A model generated the notes under the pieces. The model was not told the origin of the DNA. It saw only the letters and a list, made by a program, of their open reading frames with translations, and ran no database searches. From contig CAVPSB010000003.1 in assembly GCA_963708025.1 (NCBI GenBank), positions 1-64,000 of the forward strand: 64,000 nt of DNA, written 5' to 3'. The position numbers and the translations under genes are program-made. Positions 1 through 61,117 of this stretch are shown here, one piece after another (position 1 is the first letter of the stretch; the number at the start of each line of letters is the position of its first letter). This stretch comes from an uncultured Candidatus Rokubacteria bacterium (GTDB lineage: Bacteria > Methylomirabilota > Methylomirabilia > Rokubacteriales > DASRDR01).

Positions 1-87
1 GGAGTCGCCCACCGCAGGCGTATGCCGCATACGCCGAGGATGGGCGACGACCGAGGACGACGCGATGCGAAGCTCATCGGTCCCGCG
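1..87. repeat. Palindromic repeat family C, copy 1 (truncated at window edge)
   Basis: Near-identical to the reverse complement of 55883-56006 and similar to 27984-28107; nested stems gtcgccca/tgggcgac and gcgtatg/catacgc. Confidence 0.85.
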
Positions 88-1941
88 CTACCCGAGGTCG
101 GCTTGGCGGCGTCGCGGTGCCCGCGAGATTCCGACGATCTTGCCGTTCCGGCGCGCCCGCCGGCTCTCGCCGTCGGCCGCGTGCGCCACCGGCCAGCCTC
201 CGGTGCCGGTCAGACGCTTGGACGCCTGCACGAGCGCTTCCGTCCCCGGGCGTGGGCTGGTGGCCGCCGGCTCCGCGCGACTGTCGTAGAAGCGGGCGAT
301 CTCGGCCAGCCGGGCCACCGGGATCTGGCCGAACGCCTGGGTGACCGTGGGGTCGAACTGGGTCCCCGCGAGCCGGAGGACCTCGGCGACGGCAGTGTCG
401 ATCGACATGGCGCTGCGGTAGGGCCGGTTCGAGGTCATGGCGTCGAAGGCGTCGGCGACCGCGATGACGCGGGCGGCCAGCGGGATCTTGTCGCCCTTCA
501 GCCCGTCGGGGTAGCCCTGGCCGTCGTAGCGCTCGTGGTGCGCCTTGATGACCTCGGCTTCCTGGGCGAGGAAGCGCAGCGGCCTGAGGATCCGCGCTCC
601 GTTCACCGGGTGCGCACGCATGAGGGCCGATCCCTCGTAGGTCAACGCCCCCGGCTGCCGGTACACCGAGTCGTTGATCACCAGCTTTCCGAGGTCGTGC
701 AGGACGCCGGCCCGTCGCGCCATCGCCACCTGGTTCGCCGAGAGACCCATGGCCTTGGCGATCTCGCCCGCGTAGAGCGACACCCGGGCCGAATGGCCCT
801 TGAGGTACAGGTCCTTGGCTTCCAGGGCGATGACGAACGACGAGATCGTATCGATGACGTTGCTCTCCAGGCTTTCGCCGAGCAGGACCTTCTGGAGCGC
901 GACCGCGATGGTCCGGGCATAGCCGGGCAGCAGCGCCTTCTCGTCGGGCTGGAAGGCGGTGCCGGCCTTCCGGCCCACGCACAGGAGGCCCATGGGCTTC
1001 TCGGTCCCCGGGATCACCGTGACGACCGCCGCGAAGCCTCGGGCGTTCCCGTTGAGGATCGCGGCCTCGATGTCGCCGGTCCGGTACAGCTCCTCGCCGG
1101 CGCCATTGACGGTGGTCAGCAGCTCGGCGGCGAGCGCCCGGTCGCCGAACTGGGTGGCGGTCGGGTTGCCATCCTGGTCGTGAAGCAGGGCCACGCCGGC
1201 GTCGCCGGTGAGACCGCGAACGGTCTGCTCCAGGGCCTGCTCCAGGAACGTCCCGGTGTCGAAGCCCTGGAGCGCGATGTCCCCGATCCGGAAGAGGGCC
1301 TCGAGGCCGAACGGCGCGCGACCGACCAGGTCCGGTTGGGCCTGCTGGGTCCCCGGCACCGGCTGGCGGCGGTCCTCCTGGAGGCGGCGGAGAAGCTGCT
1401 GCACCTGATCCAGCGCCTTGTCCAGCGAGAGAGCCTGGATGTCGGCGAGGGCGGGGTCAACCACGCGCCCCGGGGGCGAGGCCGCGGTCCGGGGGCGGGC
1501 CGGCTCCTCCGGTGGGCTCGCCGGCGCGCTTCGCCGCAGGCGATCGTCCTGGACCCGCTGGATGAGCCGCTGGACCTCGTCGACGGTGAACGGCTTCTTC
1601 AGGTAGTCGTAGGCCTGGTTCCGGAGGCCGACGACGAGCGGCTCGGCGGCGGCCGCCCCCGTGAGCACGACCGGCGCCCCCAGCTGCTTGGCCTTGACGG
1701 CGCGCAGCAGCTCGGCCGCTCCGAGTCCCGGTAGCTCGACGTCGGCGACGACGAGGTCGAATGGCTGGCCGGGGGTCGCGAGGAGCTGCAGGGTGTCCTC
1801 GGCGGTGGAGGCCGTGGCCGCCACGCAGCCGTTCGAGGTGAACGCGAAGGCCATGAAGCGGAGGACCAGGGAGTGAGGGTCGATCAGCAGGACGCGTAAT
1901 TCCTGGAGGCCTCGCGGCCCAACGCCCTGGTTGTCGGTCAT
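88..1941 (-). CDS. Response regulator receiver + HD-GYP c-di-GMP phosphodiesterase (central GAF-like region)
   Basis: N-terminal REC (VADVELP, KKPF); HSARV, HDLGK, HHERYDGQGYP, DAFDAMTSNRPYR motifs intact. Confidence 0.9.
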   Translation of the reverse strand: MTDNQGVGPRGLQELRVLLIDPHSLVLRFMAFAFTSNGCVAATASTAEDTLQLLATPGQPFDLVVADVELPGLGAAELLRAVKAKQLGAPVVLTGAAAAEPLVVGLRNQAYDYLKKPFTVDEVQRLIQRVQDDRLRRSAPASPPEEPARPRTAASPPGRVVDPALADIQALSLDKALDQVQQLLRRLQEDRRQPVPGTQQAQPDLVGRAPFGLEALFRIGDIALQGFDTGTFLEQALEQTVRGLTGDAGVALLHDQDGNPTATQFGDRALAAELLTTVNGAGEELYRTGDIEAAILNGNARGFAAVVTVIPGTEKPMGLLCVGRKAGTAFQPDEKALLPGYARTIAVALQKVLLGESLESNVIDTISSFVIALEAKDLYLKGHSARVSLYAGEIAKAMGLSANQVAMARRAGVLHDLGKLVINDSVYRQPGALTYEGSALMRAHPVNGARILRPLRFLAQEAEVIKAHHERYDGQGYPDGLKGDKIPLAARVIAVADAFDAMTSNRPYRSAMSIDTAVAEVLRLAGTQFDPTVTQAFGQIPVARLAEIARFYDSRAEPAATSPRPGTEALVQASKRLTGTGGWPVAHAADGESRRARRNGKIVGISRAPRRRQADLG

Positions 1942-2629
1942 GCGCCGAGATCCTTTCCTGCGGCTGGTTGTCCCACTCGAGACCGAGCCCGGTCGGACGA
2001 GGGCCGGTCACGAGATGCAACAGGAGGACCAGGCGGGAGGGGACGCGCCGGCCGGGCCCGGTTTTCCACCGCGACGCCGGTAACGAGCCGGCAGAGCCTC
2101 GACTTCGCGCCGGGTTTCGCGGGGTGGCGAATCGGGCGCCATTCGAGGGGCAGGCGGCCCGGCGACGGCCGGCGGTGCCCGGCTGTGTCAGGTGGGGGAG
2201 CCGGAATTGTCCAGTGGCCAGAAAGGAGCGGCTGCCGCGTAGCCGATCGGCGCTCCTTCGCCCCCAGCGGGGCGAGACCGCCCCGCCCGGGCGCCGCCGC
2301 CGGCTGGGCTCGCGTCGTTACCGTCGGATCCACGGTTCCGGAGCTCATGGGTCTTGGGCTTTCCACGAAAGGGGCGCACTCTCGATGATCACACGAGGAC
2401 CGCGCGCTTCACGCGTTGTTTCACCGCGTCGCCGCGACGACGGAATGCCAGCTGGCCAAAACCTCACCGCTCGCGAAGTGGACCTGGCTCGTTTTGTGCC
2501 TTTTCGACATTGGCAATAACCGAGATTTGGCAATTCGCGAAAAGCGCACTTCGAGTGCCGCTCTGACAGAAAGCCGTGATTCCCGTCACTTGGCCGATTC
2601 CCACATGGCACCGTGGCGCTTTTCCGCTC

Positions 2630-2645
2630 TGGCACGGAAGCTGCT
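2630..2645 (+). promoter_or_regulatory. Sigma54 (-24/-12) promoter of the che operon
   Basis: TGGCACG-GAAG-CTGCT versus consensus TGGCACG-N4-TTGCW, about 30 nt upstream of GAGGAGG SD and cheY ATG. Confidence 0.75.
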
Positions 2646-2677
2646 CAAGCAACGGCCCGCACAGAGGAGGAATGCAC

Positions 2678-15330: not shown

Positions 15331-16116
15331 ATGGGTGGCGGGACCGTGCTGGTGGAGCAGGCGGACGGCATCGCGACGGTGACGCTGAACCGACCCGACG
15401 CGCGGAACGCGCTCGACCTCGTGATGCGGGAAGAGCTGGAGGCGACCCTGGCCGGCCTGGAGGCCGAGCCGACGGTGCGAGTGCTGGTGCTGCGGGGGGC
15501 CGGCGAGCACTTCTGCGCCGGCGGCGACGTCAAGTTCATGCAGGCCAGCCGGATGTCGGCCAGCGAGGGCCAGCAGCGGGTCGAGGCGATGAACCGGGCG
15601 ATCCTGGCGCTGGCGCGCTTCCGCACGCCGACCATCGCCATGGTGGACGGGTACGCCGTCGGCGCGGGCTGCAACCTGGCCCTGGCCTGCGACCTGGTGG
15701 TCGCATCGGATCGCGCGCGGTTCGGCGAGGTCTTCGCCCGCATCGGGCTCATTCCGGACGGAGGCGGCATCTACCTGCTGCCGCGGCGGGTGGGCCTGGC
15801 CCGGGCGAAGGAGCTGGTCTTCACGGCGGAGATCATCGAAGCCGCCGACGCCGAGCGGATCGGCCTGGTCAATCGCGTCGTCCCGACCGGCGAGCTCACG
15901 GCCCAGACCCAGGCGCTCGCCCGGCGGATCGCCGCCGGACCGCCCCGGGCTCATGCGATGGCCAAGTCGCTGCTCAACCGGTCGTTCGCTCTCGACCTCG
16001 AGACCAGCCTGGCCTGGGAGGGGCTGGCCCAGGGCATGATGATCGAGTCGGAGGATCACCGCGAAGGGCTGACGGCCTTCTTCGAGAAGCGCTCGCCCAG
16101 GTTCACCGGCCGCTAG
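15331..16116 (+). CDS. Enoyl-CoA hydratase/isomerase
   Basis: LNRPDARNAL, FCAGGD, AVGAGCNLALACD, GLIPDGG, EGLTAFFEKR. Confidence 0.93.
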   Translation: MGGGTVLVEQADGIATVTLNRPDARNALDLVMREELEATLAGLEAEPTVRVLVLRGAGEHFCAGGDVKFMQASRMSASEGQQRVEAMNRAILALARFRTPTIAMVDGYAVGAGCNLALACDLVVASDRARFGEVFARIGLIPDGGGIYLLPRRVGLARAKELVFTAEIIEAADAERIGLVNRVVPTGELTAQTQALARRIAAGPPRAHAMAKSLLNRSFALDLETSLAWEGLAQGMMIESEDHREGLTAFFEKRSPRFTGR

Positions 16117-16270
16117 TGCCGTTCCAACCTGTTCCAGCCAATGCGTTCGAGGAATGCGGCAAGTCCGTGCTTCAAGAATCTTGCCCATTTTGCCTCATGT
16201 AGTTGGAACGGCACTAGGACCCTTGAGCGCGGTTGAGTGAAACCGCGCGCCGGACGGGCGATTCCTTTCC

Positions 16271-17437: not shown

Positions 17438-17460
17438 CGGGGGGTCTCGGAAGACCCCCG
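17438..17460. repeat. Hairpin repeat family D, copy 1
   Basis: cggggggtct-cgga-agacccccg; near-identical to 33026-33053; part of a larger multibranch palindrome to about 17541. Confidence 0.7.
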
Positions 17461-26085: not shown

Positions 26086-26142
26086 GGGGTCCACCCCCAC
26101 CCCCGACCCCTCCCCACCCGCCGGGGGGAGGGGGGGCGCCCC
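26086..26142. repeat. REP-like C-rich/G-rich hairpin between gspG and gspH
   Basis: cccccacccccgacccctccccacccgccggggggaggggggg; resembles the family A core. Confidence 0.55.
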
Positions 26143-27983: not shown

Positions 27984-28107
27984 GCACCGGGCCGAGACCC
28001 GAGCAGCCCTAGGACGCAGGGAGGAGGCGGGCCGAGGCGTATGCCTCATACGTTGAGGCCCGCCGACGACCGAGGACGACGGGATGCGACGGGTCTCGGC
28101 CCGGTGC
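27984..28107. repeat. Palindromic repeat family C, copy 2
   Basis: Perfect 18-bp terminal inverted repeat gcaccgggccgagacccg/cgggtctcggcccggtgc; shares ctaggacgcaggga and gacgaccgaggacgac with the other copies. Confidence 0.85.
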
Positions 28108-31862: not shown

Positions 31863-33020
31863 GTGAGCGAAGAAGACCGCGAGGTCGTCCGCCGGGTCCA
31901 GGCGGGTGAGACCGAAGCCTTCGAGGTGCTCGTCGAGAAGTACAAGCGGAAGACGTTCCGGCTCGCCTACGGGGTGCTGCGGGACCAGGAGGAGGCGTTG
32001 GACGTGTCCCAGGAGGCCTTCGTGAAGGCGTTCCGGTCGCTGCCGAAGTTCAAGGGGGAGTCCGCCTTCTACACCTGGCTCTTTCGCATCACGATGAACG
32101 TCGCTCTCGACCGGAAGCGCCAACGCACCTCCCGCGCCAGGTCGCTCGGCACCGAGGACGTGCCACCGGAGGAGTGGGAGCGCACCGCGGTGGCTACCGA
32201 CATCAGCCCGGACGACGAGGCGGCCTCGGCCGAGCGGCGGGCGCGGATCGGGCACGCCCTCGAATCCTTGCCAGAGCACCACCGGTCCATTATCATCTTG
32301 AGTGACATCGAAGGGCTTTCCTACCGGGAGATCGCGGAGGTGCTCGCCATCCCCATGGGGACGGTGATGTCACGACTGCACAACGCACGGAAGCGGCTCC
32401 GCGAGGCTCTGGGTCCCGCCTTTCTCGGCCTTCTGCTCGGCGTCCTCCTGATCGCGGGCCTCGGCTGGCCGACGCAGGCGCAGGTGCCGCTGCCGCCGCC
32501 CCCGCCCGGGCCGGCTCCCGCGGGACCGGTTTGCGTGTACGCGCTCGTGCTCCTGGCCTCGAACCCGCCGCCGCCGGGCAGCGTGCTCACCCCGACGCCG
32601 CCGCTGCGGCCCCCGGGATCCCAGGGCGCGCCGCCCGGCCCGGCCGCGCCGCCGGCCCCCGACGACTGGGGCGAGTCTCCGGTGCTCGGCGGCGGGTGCG
32701 GGCGGGCGGTCCGCCTCCAGCCGTGGATGCCGCGGCTGCGGGAGGTGTTCGGCTACTCGAGCTACGAGCCGATAAGCGCCTTCGAGACCACCATGCCGCT
32801 CGGCACGCTCCAGCGCTTCGCCCTGCCCGGAGGCCGCGAGCTCCAGATCCAGCCCTTGGCCATCCGGGTCCCGGTGGTCCGCATCGCCGTGAGGATCCTC
32901 CGGGGCCCCATGATCGAGATCGCCACCGTGATGGACGTGCCCCCGCGACGGCCCGCGCTGATCGGCGGGCCGCCCCACGGGACCGGGGTGCTGATCATCG
33001 CGATCCGAGCCCGGCCCTAA
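31863..33020 (+). CDS. ECF sigma factor fused in frame to TM/signal segment + Pro-rich linker + C-terminal domain
   Basis: Region 2 (DVSQEAF, FYTWLFRI), region 4 (GLSYREIAEVL, GTVMSRLH), then AFLGLLLGVLLIAGLGW-PTQAQ with no stop. Confidence 0.85.
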   Translation: MSEEDREVVRRVQAGETEAFEVLVEKYKRKTFRLAYGVLRDQEEALDVSQEAFVKAFRSLPKFKGESAFYTWLFRITMNVALDRKRQRTSRARSLGTEDVPPEEWERTAVATDISPDDEAASAERRARIGHALESLPEHHRSIIILSDIEGLSYREIAEVLAIPMGTVMSRLHNARKRLREALGPAFLGLLLGVLLIAGLGWPTQAQVPLPPPPPGPAPAGPVCVYALVLLASNPPPPGSVLTPTPPLRPPGSQGAPPGPAAPPAPDDWGESPVLGGGCGRAVRLQPWMPRLREVFGYSSYEPISAFETTMPLGTLQRFALPGGRELQIQPLAIRVPVVRIAVRILRGPMIEIATVMDVPPRRPALIGGPPHGTGVLIIAIRARP

Positions 33021-33025
33021 GAACA

Positions 33026-33053
33026 TCGGGGGGGTCTCGGAAGACCCCCCCGA
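33026..33053. repeat. Hairpin repeat family D, copy 2
   Basis: tcgggggggtct-cgga-agacccccccga, 5 nt after the stop codon. Confidence 0.7.
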
Positions 33054-33178
33054 GGCCCCCCCTCGGAGGCCGCGGCTGAGCCGCGGCTCGGAGCGGAACT
33101 CCCTGGCGGCGAGGCCATTGGTCAGCGCGTTGCGAGAATCCAGAGGATCCGGACCGGAACGTCGACAAGAGGAGAGAT

Positions 33179-36445: not shown

Positions 36446-36450
36446 TCCGA

Positions 36451-36540
36451 TCGGGACCTCCCACCTACCCCCCAACCCCCCTCCCCCACCGTTGGACGGC
36501 CTTCGGCCTGTGGCTGGGGGGAGGGGGGAGCCGGAGGATC
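36451..36540 (-). repeat. Repeat family A copy (inverted), overlapping the cobC start
   Basis: Reverse complement reads tcctccggctccccc...ggccgaaggcc...gtgggggagggggg...gggaggtcccga, as at 42936, 45041 and 61050. Confidence 0.85.
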
Positions 36541-37211
36541 GCATTCCTCCACCCATCGGCTCTCGAGTCTCGACCTGGCTCTACCTGATCCGTCACGGTG
36601 AGATCGAGCACGCCGCCGAGGGCCGGTTCTTCGGCCACACCGATGTGAGCCTCTCGGCGACCGGCCTCGCCCAGGTCGAGGCCCTCGGCCGCCAGCTCGC
36701 GCTCGAGCCGATCGACGCGGTCTACACCAGCGACCTCACTCGCGCCCGGCAATCCGCGGGCCCGCTGGCCGGCGCCCGCGGCCTGATGCCGGTCGTCGTC
36801 CCGGCACTCCGGGAGATGGCGATGGGCCGGTGGGAAGGCCTTACCTTTCGCGAGATCCGGGAGCAGGAGCCGGACGCGCTCGCCCAGTGGCTCGCCAACC
36901 TCACGACGTTTCCGTTTCCGGGTGGCGAGAACCTCGAGGGCCTCCGGACCCGCGTGATGCCGGCGCTCGGCGAGATCCTGGCCCGCCACGCCGGGGGCCG
37001 TGTCGCCGTGGTTGCGCATGGCGGCCCGAACCGCGTCATCCTGGCGGAAGCGCTCGGCCTGCCGCTGGGCCACCTGCTCCGGCTGGCGCAGGACTACGCG
37101 TGCTGGAGCGTCGTCGAGTATCGGACCGACGTCGCGGTCCTCCACACGCTGAACCAGCGCGTGGCCGGTATCGCCGCCGCGGCGCCGGTCGAGCGCACCG
37201 CTGCGCCCTGA
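36492..37211 (+). CDS. cobC: Alpha-ribazole-5'-phosphate phosphatase (histidine phosphatase); start uncertain, lies inside repeat
   Basis: LIRHGE, YTSDLTRA, LREMAMGRWEG, VAHGG; follows cobS. Confidence 0.85.
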   Translation: MDGLRPVAGGRGEPEDRIPPPIGSRVSTWLYLIRHGEIEHAAEGRFFGHTDVSLSATGLAQVEALGRQLALEPIDAVYTSDLTRARQSAGPLAGARGLMPVVVPALREMAMGRWEGLTFREIREQEPDALAQWLANLTTFPFPGGENLEGLRTRVMPALGEILARHAGGRVAVVAHGGPNRVILAEALGLPLGHLLRLAQDYACWSVVEYRTDVAVLHTLNQRVAGIAAAAPVERTAAP

Positions 37212-37313
37212 GCGGAACGCCACGGCCGCGCGGCCGGCGCCAGGGGGCTGCGAGAAGCCGGTGGGCGGTCGGACTGGGAGCCGCCGGTATTTCTCTACGG
37301 GCCCTGAGCCGCG

Positions 37314-38490: not shown

Positions 38491-38573
38491 GAGGCGCTGA
38501 GGCTGTGAAGCGATCGCCGAGGACGTGTGAGCTACCGGAGCTCCGGAGGGGGGGACCGGGCCGCCGGAGGGAC

Positions 38574-38608
38574 GCGGCGTCCCGAGGGCCGCAGGCCCGA
38601 GGCGCCGC
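38574..38608. repeat. Repeat family B copy upstream of ileS
   Basis: gcggcgtcccga-gggcc-gca-ggccc-gaggcgccgc, inside a larger G7/C7 stem (38543-38642). Confidence 0.8.
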
Positions 38609-38655
38609 GGCGATAGAGATGGAGCGCGCAGCTCCCCCCCGGCCCGACTGAGAGC

Positions 38656-41876: not shown

Positions 41877-41922
41877 CTGACTCGTTGAAGCCTCAAAGTC
41901 ATGGTGGATGAGTCACGTTCTC

Positions 41923-42074
41923 GGGGCCGAGCCGAGGACGACCATAGGTCGGACCGACGCCCCCAGGCCGAAGGCCGTCCGCCCCAGGCCGAAGGCCGTC
42001 CAATCGACGTCGGCCGAGCGCGTCCCGGCCGAGATGAACGTTGCGACGCTCATCGGCTCGGCTCGGCCCTGCCC
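41923..42074. repeat. Chimeric palindromic element (family C-like ends with two tandem GGCCGAAGGCC modules)
   Basis: 3' end tgcgacgctcatcgg...ccctgccc matches family C; tandem gccccaggccgaaggccgtcc x2 at 41959-42001. Confidence 0.7.
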
Positions 42075-42105: not shown

Positions 42106-42121
42106 AGCGCCAGTCGTCAAC

Positions 42122-42379: not shown

Positions 42380-42916
42380 GTGAGCCGGGCCCGGACCCTG
42401 CTCGTCCTGGGCGGCGTCCGCGCCGGGAAGAGCGCGTACGCAGTCGAGCGGGCCGCCGAGCTGGGCGAGCGCGTCGCCTTCGTCGCCACGGCCGAGCCGC
42501 TCGACGACGAGATGGCGGCGCGCATCGCGCGGCACCGCGCGGCCCGCCCCCCCGGCTGGACGACGATCGAGGCGCCCGTCGCGCTGGCCGACGCCGTCGC
42601 CAGGCTCGAGGGGAAGGCCGACGTCGTCCTCGTCGACTGCCTGAACCTCTGGGTCGCCAACCTCCTCGGCCAGGCCCCGGAACTCGCCGACGAACCTCTC
42701 CGGGCCGAAACCAGCCGCCTGGTCGAGCTCGCGCTCCGCCGGTTCGCCAGCCTGGTCTTCGTCTCCAACGAGGTCGGCTGGGGCGTTCATCCGGAGACCC
42801 CCATCGGGCGGCGCTTCCGCGACGCCCTCGGCCTCGTCAACCAGGCGGTGGCGCGCGCCGCCGACGAGGTCGTGCTGCTGGTGGCCGGCTGCCCCCTATG
42901 GCTGAAGGTGCCCTGA
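42380..42916 (+). CDS. cobU: Adenosylcobinamide kinase / guanylyltransferase
   Basis: GGVRAGKS, ATA..DDEMAARIARHR, VDCL, SNEVGWG, RFRDALG. Confidence 0.95.
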   Translation: MSRARTLLVLGGVRAGKSAYAVERAAELGERVAFVATAEPLDDEMAARIARHRAARPPGWTTIEAPVALADAVARLEGKADVVLVDCLNLWVANLLGQAPELADEPLRAETSRLVELALRRFASLVFVSNEVGWGVHPETPIGRRFRDALGLVNQAVARAADEVVLLVAGCPLWLKVP

Positions 42917-42922
42917 GAATGT

Positions 42923-44083
42923 GTGAAGGCATGGGTCCTCCGGCTCCCCCGTCCCCCCGCCAAGGCCGAAGGCCGTCTGGGTGGGGGAGGGGGGTTGGGG
43001 GGGTGGGCGGGCGGTCCCGAACTGAGCGCGCTCCTGGGCCGGATCGTCGCGCCGGACCCGCGCCCGGCGCTGGCCGCCCAGTGCCGTCTGGACCGGCTCA
43101 CCAAGCCGGCCGGCAGCCTCGGGCGGCTGGAGGAGCTGGCCGTGCGGGCGGCGCTCATCACGGGCTCGGTCACGCCGCGGCTCACGGCCCCGGTGATCTT
43201 CACGCTGGCCGCCGACCACGGTGTCGTCGCCGAGGGCGTGAGCGCGTATCCCCAGGCGGTCACGGCTCAGATGCTCGAGAACTTCCTGGATGGCGGCGCT
43301 GGCGTGAACGTCCTCGCCCGCCAGGTCGGCGCCCGTGTCGTCGTCGCCGATCTCGGGGTGGCCCTGGATCTGGCGCCGCGTCCCCGGCTCGTCGTCCGCA
43401 AGCTTGGACGTGGCACCGCGAACCTGGCCCGTGGCCCGGCGATGGCGCGGGAGCACGCGGCGGCCGCGATCGAGATCGGCGCGAGCCTCGTCGAAGAGGC
43501 GGCGCCCGACTGCGTCGGCACCGGTGAGATGGGGATCGGCAACACCACGGCCGCCAGCGCGCTGACGGCGGCGCTGACCGGCGCCGACCCGGATGCGGTG
43601 ACCGGGCGCGGGACTGGCGTCGACGACGCCGGCCGGGCGCGGAAGGTCGTCGCGATCCGGACGGCCCTGGCGGTGAACCGCCCAGACCCTCGCGACCCGC
43701 TGGGGGTGCTGGCCGCGCTCGGCGGCTTCGAGATCGCCGGCCTGGTGGGGGTCATCCTGGCCGGGGCCGCCCGGCGCGTTCCGGTCGTCCTCGACGGCTT
43801 CATCGCGACCGCCGCCGCCCTTGTCGCCGTCCGGCTTCAGCCCGACGCACGCGAGTACCTGCTGGCCGCCCACCGGAGCGCCGAGCCCGGCCATCGGGTG
43901 CTCCTGGAAACGCTCGGCCTCGCCCCGTACCTGGACCTCGGCATGCGCCTGGGGGAGGGGACGGGGGCTGCCCTTGGCATCGGCCTCCTGCGGGCGGCCC
44001 TCGCCTGCTACGCCGAGATGGCCACGTTCAAGGAGGCCGGGGTGTCGGAGCGCCTGCCATCCCGGACGTCGGCTCAGGCATGA
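42923..44083 (+). CDS. cobT: Nicotinate-nucleotide-dimethylbenzimidazole phosphoribosyltransferase (N-terminus derived from repeat A)
   Basis: LTKPAGSLGRLE, ADHGV, GEMGIGNTT, GGFEI, LDLGMRLGEGTGA. Confidence 0.95.
   Translation: MKAWVLRLPRPPAKAEGRLGGGGGLGGWAGGPELSALLGRIVAPDPRPALAAQCRLDRLTKPAGSLGRLEELAVRAALITGSVTPRLTAPVIFTLAADHGVVAEGVSAYPQAVTAQMLENFLDGGAGVNVLARQVGARVVVADLGVALDLAPRPRLVVRKLGRGTANLARGPAMAREHAAAAIEIGASLVEEAAPDCVGTGEMGIGNTTAASALTAALTGADPDAVTGRGTGVDDAGRARKVVAIRTALAVNRPDPRDPLGVLAALGGFEIAGLVGVILAGAARRVPVVLDGFIATAAALVAVRLQPDAREYLLAAHRSAEPGHRVLLETLGLAPYLDLGMRLGEGTGAALGIGLLRAALACYAEMATFKEAGVSERLPSRTSAQA
42936..43020 (+). repeat. Repeat family A copy in frame with the cobT 5' end
   Basis: tcctccggctccccc...ggccgaaggcc...gggggaggggggttggggggg...ggtcccga. 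Confidence 0.85.
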
Positions 44084-44965: not shown

Positions 44966-45040
44966 TCACATGACGAAGCAGCGGTGCTTCCGGATAGCGG
45001 CGCGGCTGCTCCGAGTTGAGGGCGCGCGAAGGGACGGCAA

Positions 45041-45149
45041 TCCTCCGGCTCCCCCCTCCCCCCGCCAAAGGCCGAAGGCCGTCCATCAGGTGGGGGAGGG
45101 GGGCCAAAGGCCGAAGGCCGTCGAAGGATCGGGTAGGCGGGAGGTACCA
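45041..45149 (+). repeat. Repeat family A copy with two GGCCGAAGGCC modules; supplies the btuC SD
   Basis: tcctccggctccccc...; GGAGGT 6 nt before ATG 45152. Confidence 0.85.
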
Positions 45150-45151
45150 AC

Positions 45152-46168
45152 ATGATCACGCGGCGCCGCGTCCTCGGCGCATCCGCGGCGGTCGCGGCCG
45201 GACTGGTCGCGGTCTCGGCGGTCGCGCTCACCATCGGCGCGGCCCGGCTGCCGCTGGCCGAGGTGGCGGGGGCCCTCCTTGGCCGGGAGGTGCCCGGGCT
45301 GGCGGCGACCGTCGTCCTGGGCCTCCGCCTCCCACGCGTGCTGCTGGCCGCCCTGGCCGGGGGCGGGCTCGCGGTGGCCGGCGTGGCCTTCCAGGCCCTG
45401 ACCCGGAACCCGCTGGCCGACCCGGCCGTCCTCGGCGTGGCCAGCGGCGCGGCGCTCGGCGCCGTGCTCGCCCAGATCGCCGGGCTCGAAGGATCGCTCC
45501 TGGCCGCGCTGGGGCTGGCGGCGGCCTCATTCGTGGGCGCCCTGGTCGCCGCCACCGCGGTGTACCTGATCGCCTCGGTCGGGGGCCGACTCCCCGTCCA
45601 GACGCTGCTCCTGGCCGGCGTCATCGTCGGCCTCTTCTTCTCAGCCGCGATCACGTTGATCATCTCGCTCGTCGACTTCGCGCGGCTGGGCGGCATCCTC
45701 CACTGGCTGATGGGCAGCCTGGGCGCTCTCGGCTACCGGCCCGTCGCCGTCATGGCGCTCGGCTGCCTGATCGGCGGGGCGCTCCTCTACAGCCAGGCGC
45801 GCGCGCTCAACCTCCTCGCGCTGGGGGAGGAGTCCGCGCTCCAGCTCGGGGTGGAGGCGGAGCGCGTGAAGCGGGTGAGCTTCATCGCGGCCTCGCTGCT
45901 GACCGGCGTCGTCGTCGCCCACACGGGCCCGATCGGGTTCGTCGGCCTCATCGTGCCGCACGCGGTGCGGATGGTGCTGGGCTCCGACAACCGCGCGCTG
46001 ATCCCGGCCGCCGCCGGCGCCGGGGCGGCCTTCCTGGTCCTGGCCGATACCCTGGCCCGCGTCGCGCTGCGACCGGCCGAGCTGCCGGTGGGTGTCATCA
46101 CGGCGTTCTGCGGCGCGCCGTTCTTCATCTATCTGCTGCGGACGCGCTTCCGCCGGGGCCTGGGATGA
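45152..46168 (+). CDS. btuC: Cobalamin/iron-chelate ABC permease BtuC
   Basis: RLPR, NPLADP..LGVASGA, LGEESA..LG, GPIGFVGLIVPH, ELPVG. Confidence 0.92.
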   Translation: MITRRRVLGASAAVAAGLVAVSAVALTIGAARLPLAEVAGALLGREVPGLAATVVLGLRLPRVLLAALAGGGLAVAGVAFQALTRNPLADPAVLGVASGAALGAVLAQIAGLEGSLLAALGLAAASFVGALVAATAVYLIASVGGRLPVQTLLLAGVIVGLFFSAAITLIISLVDFARLGGILHWLMGSLGALGYRPVAVMALGCLIGGALLYSQARALNLLALGEESALQLGVEAERVKRVSFIAASLLTGVVVAHTGPIGFVGLIVPHAVRMVLGSDNRALIPAAAGAGAAFLVLADTLARVALRPAELPVGVITAFCGAPFFIYLLRTRFRRGLG

Positions 46169-46956: not shown

Positions 46957-47003
46957 TGCTCGATCGAATGGCCCAGTTGACGAGAGCGCGTGAAGGAGCG
47001 GGC

Positions 47004-47070
47004 GGCTCCGGCCCCCCCCCTCAGCCAAAGGCCGAAGCCGTCGAAGGATCGGGTGGGCGGGAGGTCCCAA
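47004..47070 (+). repeat. Repeat family A short copy
   Basis: gccaaaggccgaag-ccgtcgaaggatcgggtgggcgggaggtcc, nearly identical to 45103-45149. Confidence 0.8.
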
Positions 47071-47113
47071 ACCAATCGAAGGGGGTGAGAGCCAGGCGGT
47101 GTGAGTGGATGAC

Positions 47114-47364
47114 GTCCCCGATGCCGGGAAGCCGGTGAGGCGTGGCCCTTCGAGCGGCGCGCCGAGTCCGGCACTGTCCCGCAACTGTGAGGCGGCGCCG
47201 AAGGCCGGAGGCCGGAGGCGCCGCGACCAGATGCAGAGGAGCGGCGTCCCGAAGGCCGAAGGCCGGAGGCGCCGCGACCAGATGAACCATGCCACTGGGG
47301 TCAAGGAGGCCCTGGGAAGGCGCGGCGTCGCGATGAGCCACGAGTCAGGAGACCGATCGGGGAT
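47114..47364 (+). ncRNA. Atypical cobalamin riboswitch upstream of btuB, with repeat insertions
   Basis: P1 tccccgat/atcgggga; GGGAA-GCCGGTG...AGTCCGGCACTGTCCCGCAACTGTGA; GCCACTG; TGGGAAGG; GAGTCAGGAGACC. Confidence 0.88.
47192..47284 (+). repeat. Two tandem family B modules inside the riboswitch
   Basis: gcggcg..ccgaaggcc-g(g/a)a-ggccggaggcgccgcgaccagatg x2. Confidence 0.85.
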
Positions 47365-50149: not shown

Positions 50150-50265
50150 GGGGCCGGCCCCCATCCCCCCGGTGGCCACCGGAGGGGCGGGGCTCTCGGC
50201 CGGCCTTCGGCCGGCCGAGTCCCGGCGATTCGATCGGGAGGGGTCGGGGGTGGGGGAGGTCACGA
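50150..50265. repeat. Palindromic element with GGCC-TTC-GGCC hairpin and family A-like 3' end supplying the cbiZ SD
   Basis: Perfect ctcggccggcc-ttc-ggccggccgag at 50195-50219; ggggtgggggaggtcacga-ATG. Confidence 0.65.
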
Positions 50266-50952
50266 ATGATCCCCGGCGTGGCGATCGAGATCGGTCCGGC
50301 GGCGGTCTGGGTACGGAGCGCGCCGCCGCTCCGCGTGGTCGCCTCCGCCGTCGTGGGCGGTGACCTGACGGCGACCCGCCACATCGTGAACATGCACGTC
50401 CGCCCGGGCTCCCGGTGCGACCGGCCGGCCGACGACCTCCGCGCCTTCGCGCGAGGCCTTCGGATCGAGGAGCCCTTCGTCGGGCTGATGACCGCGGCCT
50501 GGACTCACCAGGCGGCGCCGGTGAGCGAGGTGGACGGCGGAATCGCGGTCACCGCCGTGGTCACCGTCGGGCTGGGCCATCCGATCACCGCCGGCGTGAG
50601 CCTGCCGGCGCCGTGGCGCCCGGGGACGATCAACACGATCGTGCTCCTCGACGCGCGCGTGCCGGTGGCGGCCGCCGTCAACGCGGTCATCACCGCGACG
50701 GAGGCCAAGGTCGGGGCGCTCGCCGCCGCCGGCATCCGGACGGCCGAGGGCGCCCCCGCCACCGGGACGGTCACCGATGCCGTCGTGGTCGCCTGGAGCG
50801 ATCGGGGGCCGGCGCTCGACTACCTGGGGCCGGCCGCTCCGGGTGGCTGGCTGGTCGCGCGAGCGGTGAGGCGCGCGGTGGCCGAGGGGATCGAGCGCTC
50901 GCTGGTCCCACCGGCGGAGGGAACGGGGCAGCCTCGGGTGGGGCGCCCGTGA
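50266..50952 (+). CDS. cbiZ: Adenosylcobinamide amidohydrolase
   Basis: SAVVGG, VGLMTAA, VTVGL, GTINTI, TATEAK, ATGTVTDAV. Confidence 0.85.
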   Translation: MIPGVAIEIGPAAVWVRSAPPLRVVASAVVGGDLTATRHIVNMHVRPGSRCDRPADDLRAFARGLRIEEPFVGLMTAAWTHQAAPVSEVDGGIAVTAVVTVGLGHPITAGVSLPAPWRPGTINTIVLLDARVPVAAAVNAVITATEAKVGALAAAGIRTAEGAPATGTVTDAVVVAWSDRGPALDYLGPAAPGGWLVARAVRRAVAEGIERSLVPPAEGTGQPRVGRP

Positions 50953-51872: not shown

Positions 51873-51954
51873 GAGCGTGTCAGCTGGCGGAGCATCTGCG
51901 CGCCCACGTCGACCTGACCGCGCTCCTGCGCCTCGTCCCCGCCACCGGAAGGGC

Positions 51955-51989
51955 GCGACGTCCCGAGGGCCGGAGGCCCGAGGCGTCGC
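51955..51989. repeat. Repeat family B copy upstream of tonB
   Basis: gcgacgtcccga-gggcc-gga-ggccc-gaggcgtcgc; compensatory A-T pair relative to the 38574 copy. Confidence 0.8.
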
Positions 51990-51999
51990 GGCGAGACGG

Positions 52000-53238
52000 A
52001 TGACCGACGCCCGGGCCATCGTCGCCGCCCTCGTGCTCTCGCTCGGCCTCCACGGCGGCGTGGCCCTCGCCCTTCGCGGACTGGGCTTCCACCCCGGAAT
52101 CTCCGAGTCGCTGCCGCCGCTCTACGTCCACCTCGTGGAGCTGGTGGTCGCCACGCCAGCCGTGCCGGCGCCGCGCGTGCGCGAGCTGCCCCCGCCTCTT
52201 CCCGTTCGCCCGCGCCGACCGGAGCTGCCCTCGGTGGTGGCGTCGGTCCCCACGCCGGCGACCGCGCCCGCCCGTGAGACCGGGGGCCCGGCGGCCCCGC
52301 CGGCCGCCGCCGCGGAGGCGCCGCGCGCGGTCGCCGAGCCGGCTGCGCCCCCGGCGCCGGCCGCGCCCCCGGCACCGCCGGCGCCTCCCGTCCCGTTGTC
52401 GGTGCCGGTCGCGCCGGCTCCGGTCGCCGCGCCTCTGGTCCCACCGATGGCTCCGCCGCCGGCGGCGCCGCTCGCCGCGCCCCCGGCTCCACCCGCCGCG
52501 CCGGCCCTATCGGTCCCGCTCGTCGCCACGGCGCCGCCGCCAGCGTCGCCTCCGGGGCCGGCAGCCGTCCCGATCCTGCCGGCGCCGGCCGTCGCGCCGC
52601 CGGTGGCGGCGGGGTCTGATCCACGGCCGGAGACCGCGTCGGCGGGCCGGTCGCCCTCCGCGCGCGCTTCCGCGTTCGCGTCGCCGTCTCCGGGAGTGGG
52701 GGTGGAACCTGGCCGCGAGGTCTCAGTTGGGGCGGTGTTACCCGGCGGCGCGCCGGGGATGGCGTCGGTCGCTCCGTCGGTGCGCCCCGGCGGAGCGGGT
52801 GGGGCGGTGGCGAGCCACGGCCGAGGCACCGCGCCGGCTCCCGGCGGCGCGCCGGAGGCCGGGGGGAGCAGCGGGGGGGCAGATAGGGTGGTCGACGCCG
52901 CGGGGCCGGTGGCGGCGTTGACGGGGGGGCGCTCCGGCGCGATTCCGCCGGAGTACGACGCCTACGTTCGCGCTCTGCGCCGGCGGATCGAGGAGCGGCT
53001 CGCGTACCCGGCGCTCGCGGTGCGGCGTGGTGTGCAGGGAACCGTCGAGCTCGAGCTGCAGCTCGACCCCGCCGGGCGGCTGACGGCGGTCCTCGAGGTC
53101 GGGCGCGATGGCGGCCTCTTGCGCGAGGCGGCGATCCGGGCGGTCCAGGACGCCACCCCGTTTCCGTTTCCGCCGGGACTGGCGGCGCGCGCGCTCACGA
53201 TCCGGCTCCCGATCGTATTCGAGCTTCGCCAGCGCTGA
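52000..53238 (+). CDS. tonB: TonB-family energy transducer with a long Pro/Ala linker
   Basis: TM with SxxxH (SLGLH), Pro-rich linker, YPALAVRRGVQGTV...A..AV...PFP. Confidence 0.85.
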   Translation: MTDARAIVAALVLSLGLHGGVALALRGLGFHPGISESLPPLYVHLVELVVATPAVPAPRVRELPPPLPVRPRRPELPSVVASVPTPATAPARETGGPAAPPAAAAEAPRAVAEPAAPPAPAAPPAPPAPPVPLSVPVAPAPVAAPLVPPMAPPPAAPLAAPPAPPAAPALSVPLVATAPPPASPPGPAAVPILPAPAVAPPVAAGSDPRPETASAGRSPSARASAFASPSPGVGVEPGREVSVGAVLPGGAPGMASVAPSVRPGGAGGAVASHGRGTAPAPGGAPEAGGSSGGADRVVDAAGPVAALTGGRSGAIPPEYDAYVRALRRRIEERLAYPALAVRRGVQGTVELELQLDPAGRLTAVLEVGRDGGLLREAAIRAVQDATPFPFPPGLAARALTIRLPIVFELRQR

Positions 53239-55012: not shown

Positions 55013-55028
55013 CCGCGCGCGACCACTC

Positions 55029-55883
55029 ATGCTGAGCGCCCGCCGGCCGGTCCCGCCGCGCCACGAGTACCGGTTCGGAACCCAGGAGCTGGTGACGTGT
55101 GTCGCGGCGTTCCTGCTGATCTGGGCCCTCACGTTCGTCTTCGGCTTGCTGGTGGGTCGGGAGCTGTCCGGATCCACCCGGGGACGCGCCGGAGGGAGCG
55201 AGCCGAAGTCGGCCCTGGCCGCCACGGCGCCCGACGCCGAGCGGCTGCCGCCGGGAACGCCGGCCCGGAAGCCGGAGCGGGGTGGGTCCCCGGAGCGGAG
55301 CGGGTCGCCGGAGCGGAGCGGGTCGGAGGACCAGTTGACGTTCTACAAGACCCTCACGGCACCGACGCTCGATCTGCCCGCGACCGCGGCGCATCCCCCG
55401 AAGATCGAGGAGCGGATGGTGCCCCACGAGGCGCCGCCCGCGGTCGCCGCTGCCGTGGAGCCCCGCCCCAGCGCCCCGCCCGCTCCCGCGCCGGTGGTCA
55501 AGAGCCCCGCGCCCAGCGCGCGGAAGCCGGTCCGCGAGCCAGCCGTCGCCCCGACCCCGGAGCGGCGGGCGGCACCGCCACCCCCGGCCCCCGCGGCCCC
55601 CCCGGTCCCCGCGGCCCCGGCCGCCGACCCTGCGGCCGCCAGGCCCTGGACCGTCCAGGTCAGCTCCTTCCGCAGCCGGGCCCTGGCCGACGAGCTGCGG
55701 GGCCAGCTCGCGGCCAAGGGGTTCGACGCCTACATGGTCTCGGTCACCACCGAAGAGGGCCGGGTGCGCCACCGGGTCCGGGTCGGCGGGTTCACCACCC
55801 GCGCCGAGGCCGAGCGCGTGGCCGGTGAGCTGCGGGGGGAGCGCAACTTGAACCCATTCGTCACCACTCGTTCCCGGAGCTAG
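55029..55883 (+). CDS. SPOR-domain (FtsN-like) membrane protein
   Basis: N-terminal TM, LTFYKTL, Pro-rich linker, WTVQVSSF..HRVRVGGF; classic argS-SPOR pairing. Confidence 0.88.
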   Translation: MLSARRPVPPRHEYRFGTQELVTCVAAFLLIWALTFVFGLLVGRELSGSTRGRAGGSEPKSALAATAPDAERLPPGTPARKPERGGSPERSGSPERSGSEDQLTFYKTLTAPTLDLPATAAHPPKIEERMVPHEAPPAVAAAVEPRPSAPPAPAPVVKSPAPSARKPVREPAVAPTPERRAAPPPPAPAAPPVPAAPAADPAAARPWTVQVSSFRSRALADELRGQLAAKGFDAYMVSVTTEEGRVRHRVRVGGFTTRAEAERVAGELRGERNLNPFVTTRSRS

Positions 55884-56006
55884 GGCAGGGCCGATGAGCG
55901 TCGCATCGCGTCGTCCTCGGTCGTCGCCGATCCTCGGCGTACTCGGAGTACGCCTGCGGTCGGCGACTCCCTGCGTCCTAGCGCTGCTCGCTCCTCGGCC
56001 CTGCCC
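55883..56006. repeat. Palindromic repeat family C, copy 3
   Basis: Terminal IR gggcagggccga/tcggccctgccc; apical ggcgtact/agtacgcc. Confidence 0.88.
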
Positions 56007-56055
56007 ACGAGACTCATCTGCCGTCACGGTTGGCGCCTAAAGGAGCCGAGGGTTC

Positions 56056-59619: not shown

Positions 59620-59640
59620 GCCCACCATCGCATCCTGCCG

Positions 59641-60507
59641 GTGGCGGCCGGAGACCTCGGCGTGACGGCCAGCGTGTGGGACGTCCTGCGCGTGTTCCGG
59701 CTCCGCGATGCGCTCGACATCGCCATCGTCGCCTACGTCCTCTACCGCGCGCTCCTGATGTTCCGGGGCACGCTCGCCGTCCAGATGCTGTCGGGGATCG
59801 CCCTCCTGATGGTCGCCCGCTTCGCGTCGCGGGAGGCGGGCCTCCACAGCATCGGCTTCATCCTGGACAACTTCTGGAGCTTCTGGGTCCTGGCCCTCAT
59901 CGTGCTCTTCCAGCCGGAGCTGCGCCGCACGCTGGCCCAGGTGGGCCGCAGCCGGCTGTTCGAGCGTCTTTTCGGCGAGGCGGGACCGGAGCGGCGCCAC
60001 GTGGTCGAGGAGGTGGTGCAGGCGGCCGAGTCGCTGGCCGCCAAGCGGATCGGCGCGCTCGTCGTCCTGGAGCGGCAGAGCGGCCTCCGACACTACGCCG
60101 AGCTGGGCATGCGCGTAGATGCGACGGTCTCGGCCGAGCTGCTTGGCAGCATCTTCCTGCCGGCCTCGCCCCTCCACGACGGCGCCGTCTTCATCCAGCA
60201 CGGCCGCATCAGCGTCGCCGGCTGTTTCCTGCCGCTGTCCCGGAACCTGCGCCTGTCCCGGACGCTGGGCACCCGTCACCGGGCGGCCCTGGGGCTCGCC
60301 GAGGAGACCGACGCGGTCGTCGTCGTCGTCTCCGAGGAGACGGGCGGCCTCTCGATCGCCGTCGATGGTGGAATGCAGTCGGGGCTCGACTCCGTCGAGC
60401 TGCATCGCCGGCTGGCCGAGCTGATGGGAACCGGCGAGCCGCCCACGGCTTCCCGGAGCGCGCTGCTGGAGGGAGTGCGCCGGCTCACCGTGCGCGGCAA
60501 GGCGTGA
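59641..60507 (+). CDS. cdaA: Diadenylate cyclase CdaA (start may be 59662 or 59674)
   Basis: 3 TM, FQPELRR, LHDGA, GTRHRAA, VSEETG. Confidence 0.95.
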   Translation: MAAGDLGVTASVWDVLRVFRLRDALDIAIVAYVLYRALLMFRGTLAVQMLSGIALLMVARFASREAGLHSIGFILDNFWSFWVLALIVLFQPELRRTLAQVGRSRLFERLFGEAGPERRHVVEEVVQAAESLAAKRIGALVVLERQSGLRHYAELGMRVDATVSAELLGSIFLPASPLHDGAVFIQHGRISVAGCFLPLSRNLRLSRTLGTRHRAALGLAEETDAVVVVVSEETGGLSIAVDGGMQSGLDSVELHRRLAELMGTGEPPTASRSALLEGVRRLTVRGKA

Positions 60508-60905
60508 TGTCGCTGGCGGCGCGCCTCGCCGAGCACTGGCAGCTCAAGCTTCTCTCCCTCGTCTTCGCGATCGCCCTGTGGATCTTCCTGGTGGTGGAGG
60601 ACAAGGGTGAGGCCGTCTACACCGTGCCACTGGACGTGAGGAACGTGCCGCCGGGCACGGAGGTGACCGCGCTCGGGGCGGAGGCCGTCGCGGTGCGGGT
60701 GCAGGGCCTGCGCCACGTCCTGAGCCGCCTCGACGAGCGGGAGCTCCGCGCCGCCGTGGACCTCCGCGGGGCGGGCCCCGGGGACGTGCTCCTGCGGATC
60801 CGGCCGGAGGACATCACGGTGCCTCGCGGTGTGGAGGTGGTGCGGATCACCCCCGCCCAGGTCCGCGCCACGCTGGATCCGGTGGCGTCCCCTCCCCGCC
60901 CCTGA
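60507..60905 (+). CDS. cdaR: CdaR/YbbR-family protein, single YbbR domain
   Basis: WQLKLLSLVFAIALW TM plus one YbbR-like domain; TGATG coupling. Confidence 0.85.
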   Translation: MSLAARLAEHWQLKLLSLVFAIALWIFLVVEDKGEAVYTVPLDVRNVPPGTEVTALGAEAVAVRVQGLRHVLSRLDERELRAAVDLRGAGPGDVLLRIRPEDITVPRGVEVVRITPAQVRATLDPVASPPRP

Positions 60906-61025
60906 GGGGCCCGGCCCGGTTTAATGGCCGGCAACTGGCGGTTCTTGAGATACGGTGACCCGGTGAGGGTCCGCCCAATGAGCATGCGACAAGGAATGCG
61001 GCTTCAGCCCTCCCACCTCCCTCCA

Positions 61026-61117
61026 GCCGAAGGCCGAAGACCCTGCAGGCCTCCGGCTCCCCCCTCCCCCCCGGTGGGTGGGGGAGGGGGGTTGGGGGGG
61101 TGGGCGGGAGGTCCCGA
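61026..61117 (+). repeat. Repeat family A copy upstream of glmM
   Basis: gccgaaggccgaag...cctccggctccccc...gggggaggggggttgggggggtgggcgggaggtcccga. Confidence 0.85.

Follow-up and report, generated by a model that had tools for sequence, protein, structure and literature searches.

What kind of element occupies the intergenic spaces of a stretch of Rokubacteria DNA in which short, GC-rich palindromes recur in one gap after another, and what could have moved it there? The stretch in question (hereafter, the window) comprises the initial 64 kb of contig CAVPSB010000003.1 in assembly GCA_963708025.1, from an uncultured Candidatus Rokubacteria bacterium, and its repeats fall into four families, designated A, B, C and D. 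The original prediction, made from the letters of the window, had taken them for repetitive extragenic palindromic (REP) elements or REPINs, mobilised by an HUH-type REP-associated tyrosine transposase (RAYT). Our analysis leads to a different answer: A, B, D and probably C are likely to be non-autonomous miniature transposons derived from insertion sequences (IS) of the IS1182 family, which use a DDE transposase. They are an ordinary kind of mobile DNA, and not a REP/RAYT system.

Families A to D Are Dispersed Throughout the Genome

The assembly comprises 8,166,589 bases in 49 contigs, with 71% G+C, a marker completeness of 99.67% and a contamination of 8.18%. Genome-wide copies were collected with nhmmer family profiles at E ≤ 1e-3, a copy being considered near full length when it covered at least 80% of the model. 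We obtained 458 copies of A (326 near full length), 319 of C (157), 207 of D (112) and 78 of B (27), each family being spread over 24–35 of the 49 contigs. Together with a classical 103-bp MITE (a miniature transposable element with inverted repeats), the five families amounted to more than 1000 copies and covered 106,932 of the 8,166,589 bases (1.3%). Merely 4–10% of the element bases were inside gene calls, compared to 79% of the genome.

With regard to the window, repeats were present at every site that had been listed in the original prediction, and these sites were marked by 14-mers with maximum genome counts of 111 to 516. The recurrence of four intergenic families thus stood, and it extended genome-wide for all of them, while some assignments had to be revised. 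Within family B, the sites at 38574 and 51955 (the latter a core only) were retained, whereas those at 47192 and 47241 are B-core-like hairpins within a riboswitch. Within family D, 33026 is a full copy and 17438 only the first hairpin, and a fragment at 37205–37300 had been missed. As for the proposed relatives of A, 26086 is a degenerate A copy and 50150 an A/B hybrid; the 103-bp MITE at 16114–16216 had not been noticed.

Regarding their anatomy, A elements are about 96 nucleotides (nt) long and consist of a 16-nt head beginning GAGCGTGTGAA, followed by a long hairpin and ending with the letters AAC; one arm of the hairpin extends from CGGGTCCTCC through a C-run, and the other returns along G-runs to GGAGGTCCCG. 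In B, a different hairpin stands between the same head and a comparable tail (..GGCCCGAC). D, of about 185 nt, begins GANCTTCGGGGGGG and finishes ..ATTGGTTCACGGGCGC, which is the A/B head inverted, and C, of about 190 nt, is composed of a palindromic core of about 125 nt and a 3′ extension. Long hairpins were predicted for all families on folding. In the consensus sequences, GTGAA..AAT occurred at an identical offset in three ends, namely the left ones of A and B and, when inverted, the right one of D, and the non-canonical A end (..CCCGAAC) was not an inverted copy of the A head. A, B and D carry a canonical terminal inverted repeat at one end only, the other end being the foot of the hairpin. 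Internal-deletion derivatives of about 55 nt retained just both ends. The A left end was found 155 times with up to three mismatches, 149 times in A copies and six times in variants or short derivatives, and none of these occurrences ran into a gene. Likewise, no cargo-bearing A was detected: the separated 5′ halves (31) and 3′ halves (13) were only a hairpin insert of 52–107 nt apart.

A to D Are Mobile and A, B and D Duplicate a Trinucleotide on Insertion

Contigs of four soil-metagenome runs, from four studies, were aligned to positions 36200–56150 of the window. Three sites were polymorphic. The joint 42912->43022, with 109 nt skipped and 5 nt ambiguous, was present in one contig in each of the four runs, with 51–156 nt of contig on the shorter side, and the 109-nt gap at 42913 is exactly an A copy plus one CTGAG. 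The joint 37204->37301 (96 nt skipped, 9 nt ambiguous), also found in all four runs, spans a D fragment bounded by ..CCCTGAG. At the joint 46954->47077, again in four of four runs, 122 nt (46955–47076) were swapped for 16 other letters, and this replacement begins at the TGA stop of gene 46165–46956. All three sites begin on a TGA stop codon, and both clean gaps match the element ends exactly. The presence/absence polymorphism that had been put forward as a check on the original prediction was thus observed.

The flanks of the elements were in line with these joints. Among the 273 two-ended A copies, the left flank was NTGAG in 146 (C in 106, G in 28, A in 7 and T in 5) and the right flank CTGAN in 87 (G in 56, A in 12, C in 10 and T in 9). 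A left GTGAG or ATGAG was coupled with a right CTGAG in nine A copies, which means that only TGA is duplicated and that the right-hand C belongs to the element. Nine A copies had CTCAG on the left; seven of them showed a variant right end 4 nt longer, and at least two such copies carried an identical GATCTCA stretch on both sides. TNA is found on both sides of the elements, empty sites carry one copy of it, and tandem copies have one TGA in common. With regard to family C, the left flank was CTAG in 13 of the 23 copies in which both ends were readable, and the right one was mostly CTAG or a near variant. Many A copies were 96–99% identical over 65–70 nt at unrelated loci, and C copies were 97–98% identical over about 125 nt.

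The elements of families A to D are therefore mobile and non-autonomous, and A, B and D insert at the mini-palindrome C-TNA-G with duplication of TNA, mostly TGA. In terms of target, these three families contrast with C and the 103-bp MITE, for which the target is CTAG.

One End Matches the Terminal Inverted Repeat of IS1182-Family Insertion Sequences

A search for the 21-nt A head in metagenome contigs yielded 29 loci (L044–L072). Most of them belong to a different MITE of about 90 nt, from hosts with 64–68% G+C, which has the A head on the left, an inverted copy on the right (..TTCACAGGCTC) and CTGAG flanks, and is sometimes arranged in tandem; this two-ended MITE was not found in our assembly. 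With such hosts, the range of the IS1182 end reaches well beyond the lineage of the window. At one of the loci (L056), the identical 21-nt end lies 37 nt before an open reading frame (ORF) of 435 amino acids (P0001), which matched NCBIfam profile NF033551, the IS1182 family transposase (cut-off, 270 bits), with 346.6 bits, and the Pfam domains DUF772, DDE_Tnp_1 and DDE_Tnp_1_6. Homologues of this transposase were present in 19 of 120 other genomes of the order, that is, in 3 of 20 in family f1 and in 16 of 97 in family f2.

The ends of IS copies with such homologues extended this correspondence. The complete IS at L073, of about 1580 bp, has GAGCCTGTGAA.. at its left end and the inverse at its right, is flanked by TGA on either side and contains an ORF that scored 376.4 bits against NF033551; L079 is a shorter IS copy whose ends are the same, with TGA likewise at both flanks. 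The right end of L078 adjoins TGA, the left end of L077 adjoins TCA, and L074, from a genome in the same family as that of the window, has the left end. The ends of these five loci differ at 2–4 of 16 positions, and they provide support that is independent of the end search that gave L056. In A and B the left end, and in D the right one, is the terminal inverted repeat of IS1182-family insertion sequences.

According to PMC5678879, palindromes or stem-loops in DNA are the targets of IS1272 and of other members of the IS1182 family. C-TNA-G and CTAG are themselves palindromes of minimal size. In the mechanism that we propose, an IS1182-type transposase would act in trans from outside this assembly, and the elements would land on C-TNA-G, where the duplication of TNA would regenerate the stop codon. 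In a gene-dense genome with 71% G+C, the target sites at which an insertion is tolerated would mainly be stop codons, and elements would thus accumulate precisely in the gap that separates a stop codon from the following gene. Selection would then retain the harmless or useful orientation, and the orientation retained for A would set a hairpin, a G-run tract and GGAGG ahead of the next start codon.

Several points weigh against a derivation from IS1182. The L056 locus came from an end search in a very large collection, and the reading of the non-canonical end as a truncated repeat comes from a single IS copy, L077; a DDE enzyme would have to cut A, B and D at this non-canonical end as well. 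The C end was present in none of the 89 fetched loci, and no cognate IS was found for this family; the end motif of the 103-bp MITE was equally absent from all 89. Metagenome contigs cannot separate insertion in this genome from precise deletion in other strains. The strong co-orientation of elements with genes described below (8:1 for A, 4:1 for C) needs selection after insertion, and a strand-specific mechanism would also give such a bias. The gene-based counts, in turn, are weakened by crude gene calls, in which 79% of the genome is coding and some genes were missed. Finally, the assembly had no homologue of P0001, and NF033551 gave only a 29.8-bit fragment. This last point probably carries little weight, because multi-copy insertion sequences are often lost from metagenome-assembled genomes (MAGs), and the mobiliser would be the one seen in other genomes.

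The transposase profiles run on the genome were PF01797, PF01609, PF13586, PF13359 and NF033551. None of the five matched within the window, which, along with the high copy number and non-coding nature of the repeats, agrees with the earlier description of a MITE-like, modular system in need of a mobiliser from elsewhere. PF13586 and PF13359 had no match in the genome. Separately, five DDE_Tnp_1 loci of the assembly (IS4-/IS701-like, two of them at contig ends) were considered as candidates and rejected: their ends are unrelated, and no element lies within 2.5 kb of them.

Elements Adjoin Stop Codons and Are Co-Oriented with Genes

Contact with stop codons was counted against upstream ORFs of at least 100 codons, the 3′ end on the opposite strand serving as control. 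Among 282 A copies, 166 had the upstream stop in their 5′ end, and in 128 this stop was the TGA of CTGAG (control, 56/400). For C, the corresponding figure was 105 of 159, the stop being the TAG of CTAG in 79 (control, 6/95), and for D 86 of 105, comprising 42 TGA, 36 TAG and 8 TAA (control, 0/118). Since TGA is duplicated, the upstream gene keeps its stop. Of the 6981 called genes, 4648 end in TGA, and the stop context seen most often is CTGAG, in 831 genes. On the two strands together, there were 4397 CTGAG sites inside called genes, 669 that were free stop codons and 362 at elements. The target sequence, combined with the removal of in-gene insertions, would suffice for the contact observed.

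Between co-directional genes, 171 A copies were in the same orientation as the genes and 21 in the opposite one, and for C the figures were 68 and 16. D followed the direction of the upstream gene in 107 cases versus 18, and B preceded a co-oriented downstream gene in 27 cases versus 4. Placed by their IS-type end, A and B face the opposite way from D relative to genes, which would argue for selection per family rather than for a single mechanistic strand rule. When the spacing to start codons was counted for ORFs of at least 80 codons, 106 out of 392 A copies had the GGAGG of the element 4–13 nt before an ORF start, and 200 had no start within 40 nt.

The A copy at 42913–43021 sits on the stop of cobU (42380–42916) and within the first codons of cobT. 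Concerning this junction, in strains with the empty site cobT would start at ATG 42898, overlapping the cobU stop by 19 nt. The insertion parts ATG 42898 from cobT, whose reading frame is open within the element from GTG 42923 onwards; the cobT start must therefore have moved. Displaced starts such as this one and a riboswitch below the detection threshold (see the last section) are accounted for by the families, which is relevant to the annotation of uncultured high-GC soil bacteria.

Hairpin Modules and the Constraint on Their Loops

The module A-GGCC-GNA-GGCC-GTC was present in 544 copies in the genome, namely 174 in A, 142 in C, 32 in D and 196 elsewhere, so that the exchange of parts between families claimed in the original prediction was upheld. 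It consists of a 4-bp GGCC stem and a 3-nt loop, with GTC on the 3′ side and CCAMA on the 5′ side, and occupies the apical loop of A and, in place of a TAG, an internal loop of C. Its strand is fixed in each host: GNA was on the sense strand of A in 174 of 174 cases, and on the opposite strand in C (142/142) and D (32/32). This fixed orientation indicates that the module was fixed in subfamilies that then multiplied, and that it does not hop by itself now; it is not a separate REP unit.

Known DNA mini-hairpins of the d(GCGAAGC) type have a G-N-A triloop closed by C-G on a short G+C stem. As in those, the middle base is free here while G and A are kept, the known cases being a property of oligonucleotides. 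The predicted GNA constraint held genome-wide, with GNA in 544 of 565 module loops (GAA 501, GGA 30, GCA 11, GTA 2) and in 46 of 48 B-core loops (GCA 27, GTA 18, GGA 1, others 2), tallies that refer to copies and not to events, and that are inflated by subfamily amplification. Single variants of GAA in the module affected the middle base in 43 copies, the first in 3 and the third in 8. The B-core stem showed compensatory pairs at one position (G-C 26, C-G 16) and at a second (A-T 39, G-C 7, C-G 1), which are again copy counts. The GNA strand is gene-sense in A and antisense in C and D, an opposition that would fit a possible role at the DNA level better than one in mRNA.

The folding of DNA was compared with 200 shuffles per sequence. 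The A copy folded about as well as its shuffles (z 0.15, with 108 of 200 equal or better, and z 0.20 for the other strand), the B core had a z of −0.60 and the 23-nt module one of −2.06, with 7 of 200 shuffles as good, under an energy model that may omit the G-N-A bonus. The only outliers were C (z −6.83) and D (z −2.75), for each of which 0 of 200 shuffles was as good. A canonical G-quadruplex motif was found on the sense strand of 221 of the 282 full A copies, and the families contained 461 of the 2259 such motifs of the genome within 1.3% of its bases; they account for more than 1000 intergenic hairpins and a fifth of the predicted G-quadruplex motifs. A gathering-level Rfam scan of the window returned only the cobalamin riboswitch at 42113–42306 and no family at the elements, as the original prediction would have it, and at E ≤ 1 merely a partial cobalamin match at 47264–47348 was added.

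Alternative Readings

The data on gene context and hairpins would also suit elements that are primarily functional RNA or DNA signals, portable intercistronic cassettes whose mobility is secondary or past. The co-orientation with genes in all four families, the spacing of GGAGG to start codons, the G-quadruplex motif of most full A copies, the compensatory pairs in the B-core stem and an A core that in other genera, too, is found immediately upstream of start codons are all consistent with this. Among 24 runs, no RNA data set with these sequences was found. Against this reading, a bias in orientation can be plain purifying selection on orientations that do harm, shuffled DNA folds as well as the A copy, no Rfam family matches, and the copies that are polymorphic between close strains must be dispensable. 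We therefore regard it as unlikely as a primary explanation; it is compatible with a transposon origin, to which it merely adds a layer.

An extension of the IS1182 derivation incorporates such a layer and is put forward tentatively, as a possibility on the doubtful side. The transposase may need one canonical end only, the foot of a long, very stable hairpin serving in place of the other, so that transposition would be structure-dependent; stems of G/C-runs and C-G-closed GNA mini-hairpins would then have been selected for driving the DNA into hairpins or cruciforms. Sense copies may have been co-opted in at least 100 operons as cassettes (stop codon, hairpin, G-quadruplex and Shine–Dalgarno sequence) that replace overlapping stop/start junctions, as at cobU/cobT.

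It could further be argued that the copies are no longer mobile, the differences between strains being deletions between short direct repeats and the similarity of copies being due to gene conversion. Direct repeats of 5 and 9 nt flank the two clean gaps, letters were replaced rather than cleanly lost at the third polymorphic site, and the assembly has no cognate transposase. We nonetheless consider this improbable in view of the exact coincidence of both clean gaps with element ends, the near-identical copies of A and C at unrelated loci and the TGA common to tandem copies.

The assignment to a REP/REPIN-like system, in which a domesticated tyrosine transposase of the HUH type (RAYT), with its gene at another site in the genome, would recognise and copy hairpins of single-stranded DNA, has several resemblances on its side. 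As described in PMC3733652, PMC3116915 and PMC2817692, REP elements are extragenic GC-rich palindromes, mostly downstream of genes and in hundreds of copies, which persist for a long time in a lineage and form clusters and mosaics. The repeats studied here are likewise small, GC-rich, extragenic and present in hundreds of copies, they keep C-G-closed G-N-A triloops, their ends are not inverted repeats of each other, and C persists in 23 of 30 related genomes, as REPINs do. Their orientation bias would suit a strand-specific mechanism, and CGTC-type REPs are also known without a dedicated transposase, according to PMC3733652. The same source gives for REP families a palindrome of 20–40 bp, a conserved GTAG or CGTC head and a stem of 5–13 bp. 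No GTAG or CGTC head is present in our families, and the stem has 4 bp compared to the 5–13 or 8–9 bp of the REPs described there. In addition, PF01797 had no match (E ≤ 0.01) in this 99.67%-complete assembly, the control being positive in 6 of 14 named genomes. There is no REPtron either: a RAYT gene flanked by elements had been proposed as a check, and the 17 genes within 200 nt of inverted copies of the same family are ordinary metabolic and regulatory, housekeeping-type genes, as read from their sequences. Furthermore, Y1 transposons make no duplication, in contrast to the TNA duplications and empty sites found here, and one end equals the IS1182 inverted repeat. The flank duplications and the common end point to a DDE insertion sequence rather than to REP/RAYT, and we deem the latter very improbable. 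GC-rich palindromes with stable triloops are thus not automatically REP/RAYT, a misreading that is corrected here.

Integron attC sites were set aside on location alone, as copies occur among housekeeping genes all over the genome.

Comparison with Known Systems and Distribution in Relatives

The closest autonomous relatives would be IS1272 and the IS1182 family, as presented in PMC5678879, with which the elements have the transposase family and a palindromic target in common, the stem-loop ends or target of the former being comparable to the hairpin bodies of the latter and to the siting of modules in hairpin loops. In that account, IS1272 is autonomous and replaces its target stem-loop with no duplication, in contrast to the non-autonomous elements and the 3-nt duplication observed here.

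The likeness to IS1182-derived MITEs resides in being non-coding, hairpin-forming and high-copy, with an IS1182-type end, a stop preserved at a CT..AG palindrome and a presumed transposase of the DUF772 + DDE_Tnp_1_6 type (NF033551). Sizes start at about 96 nt in A and reach about 190 nt in C and D, with 78–458 copies per family, target duplication and filled/empty polymorphism. As for two-ended repeats, A, B and D have one canonical end, the metagenome MITE of about 90 nt has both, and the 103-bp MITE has perfect ones. A cognate IS with the same ends and TGA duplication was found only in other genomes (L073 and L079, and the end at L056). Compared to those MITEs, this set differs in the target of A, B and D (C-TNA-G with a 3-nt TGA duplication in place of CTAG), its single canonical end, its G-rich sense strand, its more than 1000 copies, its nested modules and a cognate IS that is missing from the assembly.

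MIRU and Correia/NEMIS are also small repeats between the genes of operons, oriented with the genes, and they touch stop or start codons or bring expression signals. Their sequences, targets and mobilisers are unrelated to those of the elements described here, so that the likeness is one of effect only. NEMIS is itself named as a MITE in PMC3733652.

Among 30 related genomes searched, A-like cores were found in 7, all of the same family, where they were kept just upstream of start codons; D was found in 10, and C in 23, from five families of the order, with 77–88% identity. The exact A core was present in only two other public genomes, both MAGs. The lineage specificity that had been supposed thus holds only loosely. 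The single-end architecture and the order-wide persistence of C make these families a test case for structure-dependent transposition in IS1182, a family whose mechanism is poorly known. In the literature on Rokubacteria repeats, on IS1182 MITEs with target duplication and on REP elements, we found no description of these families. To our knowledge, no curated family contains these sequences.

Elements and Neighbouring Genes in the Window

The elements of the window are compiled in Table 1.

Table 1. Repeat elements of the window, with coordinates, strand and supporting data.
Feature	Position	Strand	Supporting data
Family C copy, cut off by contig start	1..86	-	nhmmer model 8-93, E 7.8e-22; 89% complementary to 55881-55970
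Classical 103-bp MITE, perfect 15-nt terminal inverted repeats, CTAG at both tips	16114..16216	.	Repeat ends 16114, 16202
D fragment, first hairpin only	17438..17460	+	14-mer count 121; no nhmmer match at E ≤ 1e-3
Degenerate A-like copy just upstream of minus-strand gene 25605-26084	26087..26140	-	Inverted matches to 61059-61103, 50236-50272; 14-mer count 178
Family C copy	27984..28102	-	nhmmer 11-129, E 3.5e-16
Family D copy, begins at TAA stop of gene 31863-33020	33018..33140	+	nhmmer 4-125, E 7e-27; fold z −2.75
Family A copy, GGCC-GAA-GGCC in apical loop, antisense to flanking genes	36447..36553	-	nhmmer 10-96, E 2.9e-13
D 3′ fragment with IS1182-type repeat end	37205..37300	+	nhmmer D 75-125; metagenome joint 37204->37301
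Family B copy, ends 3 nt before ATG of class-I tRNA synthetase gene (Pfam)	38531..38652	+	nhmmer 2-124, E 1.8e-26
C-related chimera, two tandem GGCC-GAA-GGCC modules (41966, 41987)	41895..42063	-	Weak nhmmer C match, E 3.4e-07
Family A copy plus one target-duplication copy, on cobU TGA stop	42913..43021	+	Joint 42912->43022; Pfam CobU, DBI_PRT
Family A copy, two GGCC-GAA-GGCC modules	45017..45154	+	nhmmer 2-96
A-variant: A left end, hairpin-module body, A right end	46982..47072	+	Left-end motif at 46984; joint 46954->47077
Two tandem B-core-like hairpins, 51-nt spacing, not full B	47184..47263	+	Between cobalamin riboswitch halves
A/B hybrid	50150..50272	+	Inverted match to 26087-region copy; ORF 50266-50952
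Family B core only	51941..52002	+	nhmmer B 32-93, E 2.8e-09
Family C copy, begins at TAG stop of gene 55029-55883	55882..56024	+	nhmmer 5-153, E 3.4e-43; fold z −6.83
5′-truncated family A copy, ends 2 nt before ATG 61125	61048..61122	+	nhmmer 24-97, E 9.2e-17

The 103-bp MITE is represented genome-wide by 27 end pairs 72–97 nt apart and a further pair with a spacing of 283 nt; of 25 copies, 17 adjoin an opposite-strand stop codon, and no full-length parent IS was found for it in the assembly. The antisense A copy at 36447 had at least 42 matches in its own genome, 40 of 699 candidates having been scored. The direct repeat that bounds the D fragment at 37205 contains the TGA stop of a histidine-phosphatase gene (36510–37211; Pfam). 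The chimera at 41895 gave 308 blastn-short matches, 3 of them covering at least 70% of its length.

Further A-type copies adjoin the start of a downstream gene. That at 45017 places GGAGG 7 nt ahead of the ATG (45152) of a FecCD permease gene (Pfam). The right end of the A/B hybrid also provides GGAGG 7 nt before ATG 50266, which is formed by the last A of the element and the TG of the duplicated TGA, and the gene at 61125, next to the truncated A copy, is of the phosphoglucosamine-mutase type (Pfam PGM_PMM I–IV). On another contig (C25, 162261–162558), a stretch of about 138 bp is duplicated in tandem and comprises an A copy plus the initial codons of the gene downstream.

A second cobalamin riboswitch was located at 47131–47348, upstream of a TonB-dependent receptor gene (47406-), split by about 80 nt of tandem hairpins. 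Positions 51–79 of the RF00174 model align at 47131–47183 and positions 81–162 at 47264–47348, and the score of 26.1 bits, compared to a gathering threshold of 31.5, means that ordinary annotation would miss this riboswitch.

The class-I tRNA synthetase downstream of the B copy is encoded in two overlapping frames, 38656–40653, with the catalytic domain (Pfam positions 2–333 of 414), and 40302–41876, with the anticodon-binding domain and DUF5915; this arrangement may be due to a frameshift, an assembly error or a real split. Finally, two chemoreceptor-like neighbours, at 6823–8486 and 9137–10864, were 76% identical over a 300-nt stretch and are ordinary paralogues, unrelated to the repeats.

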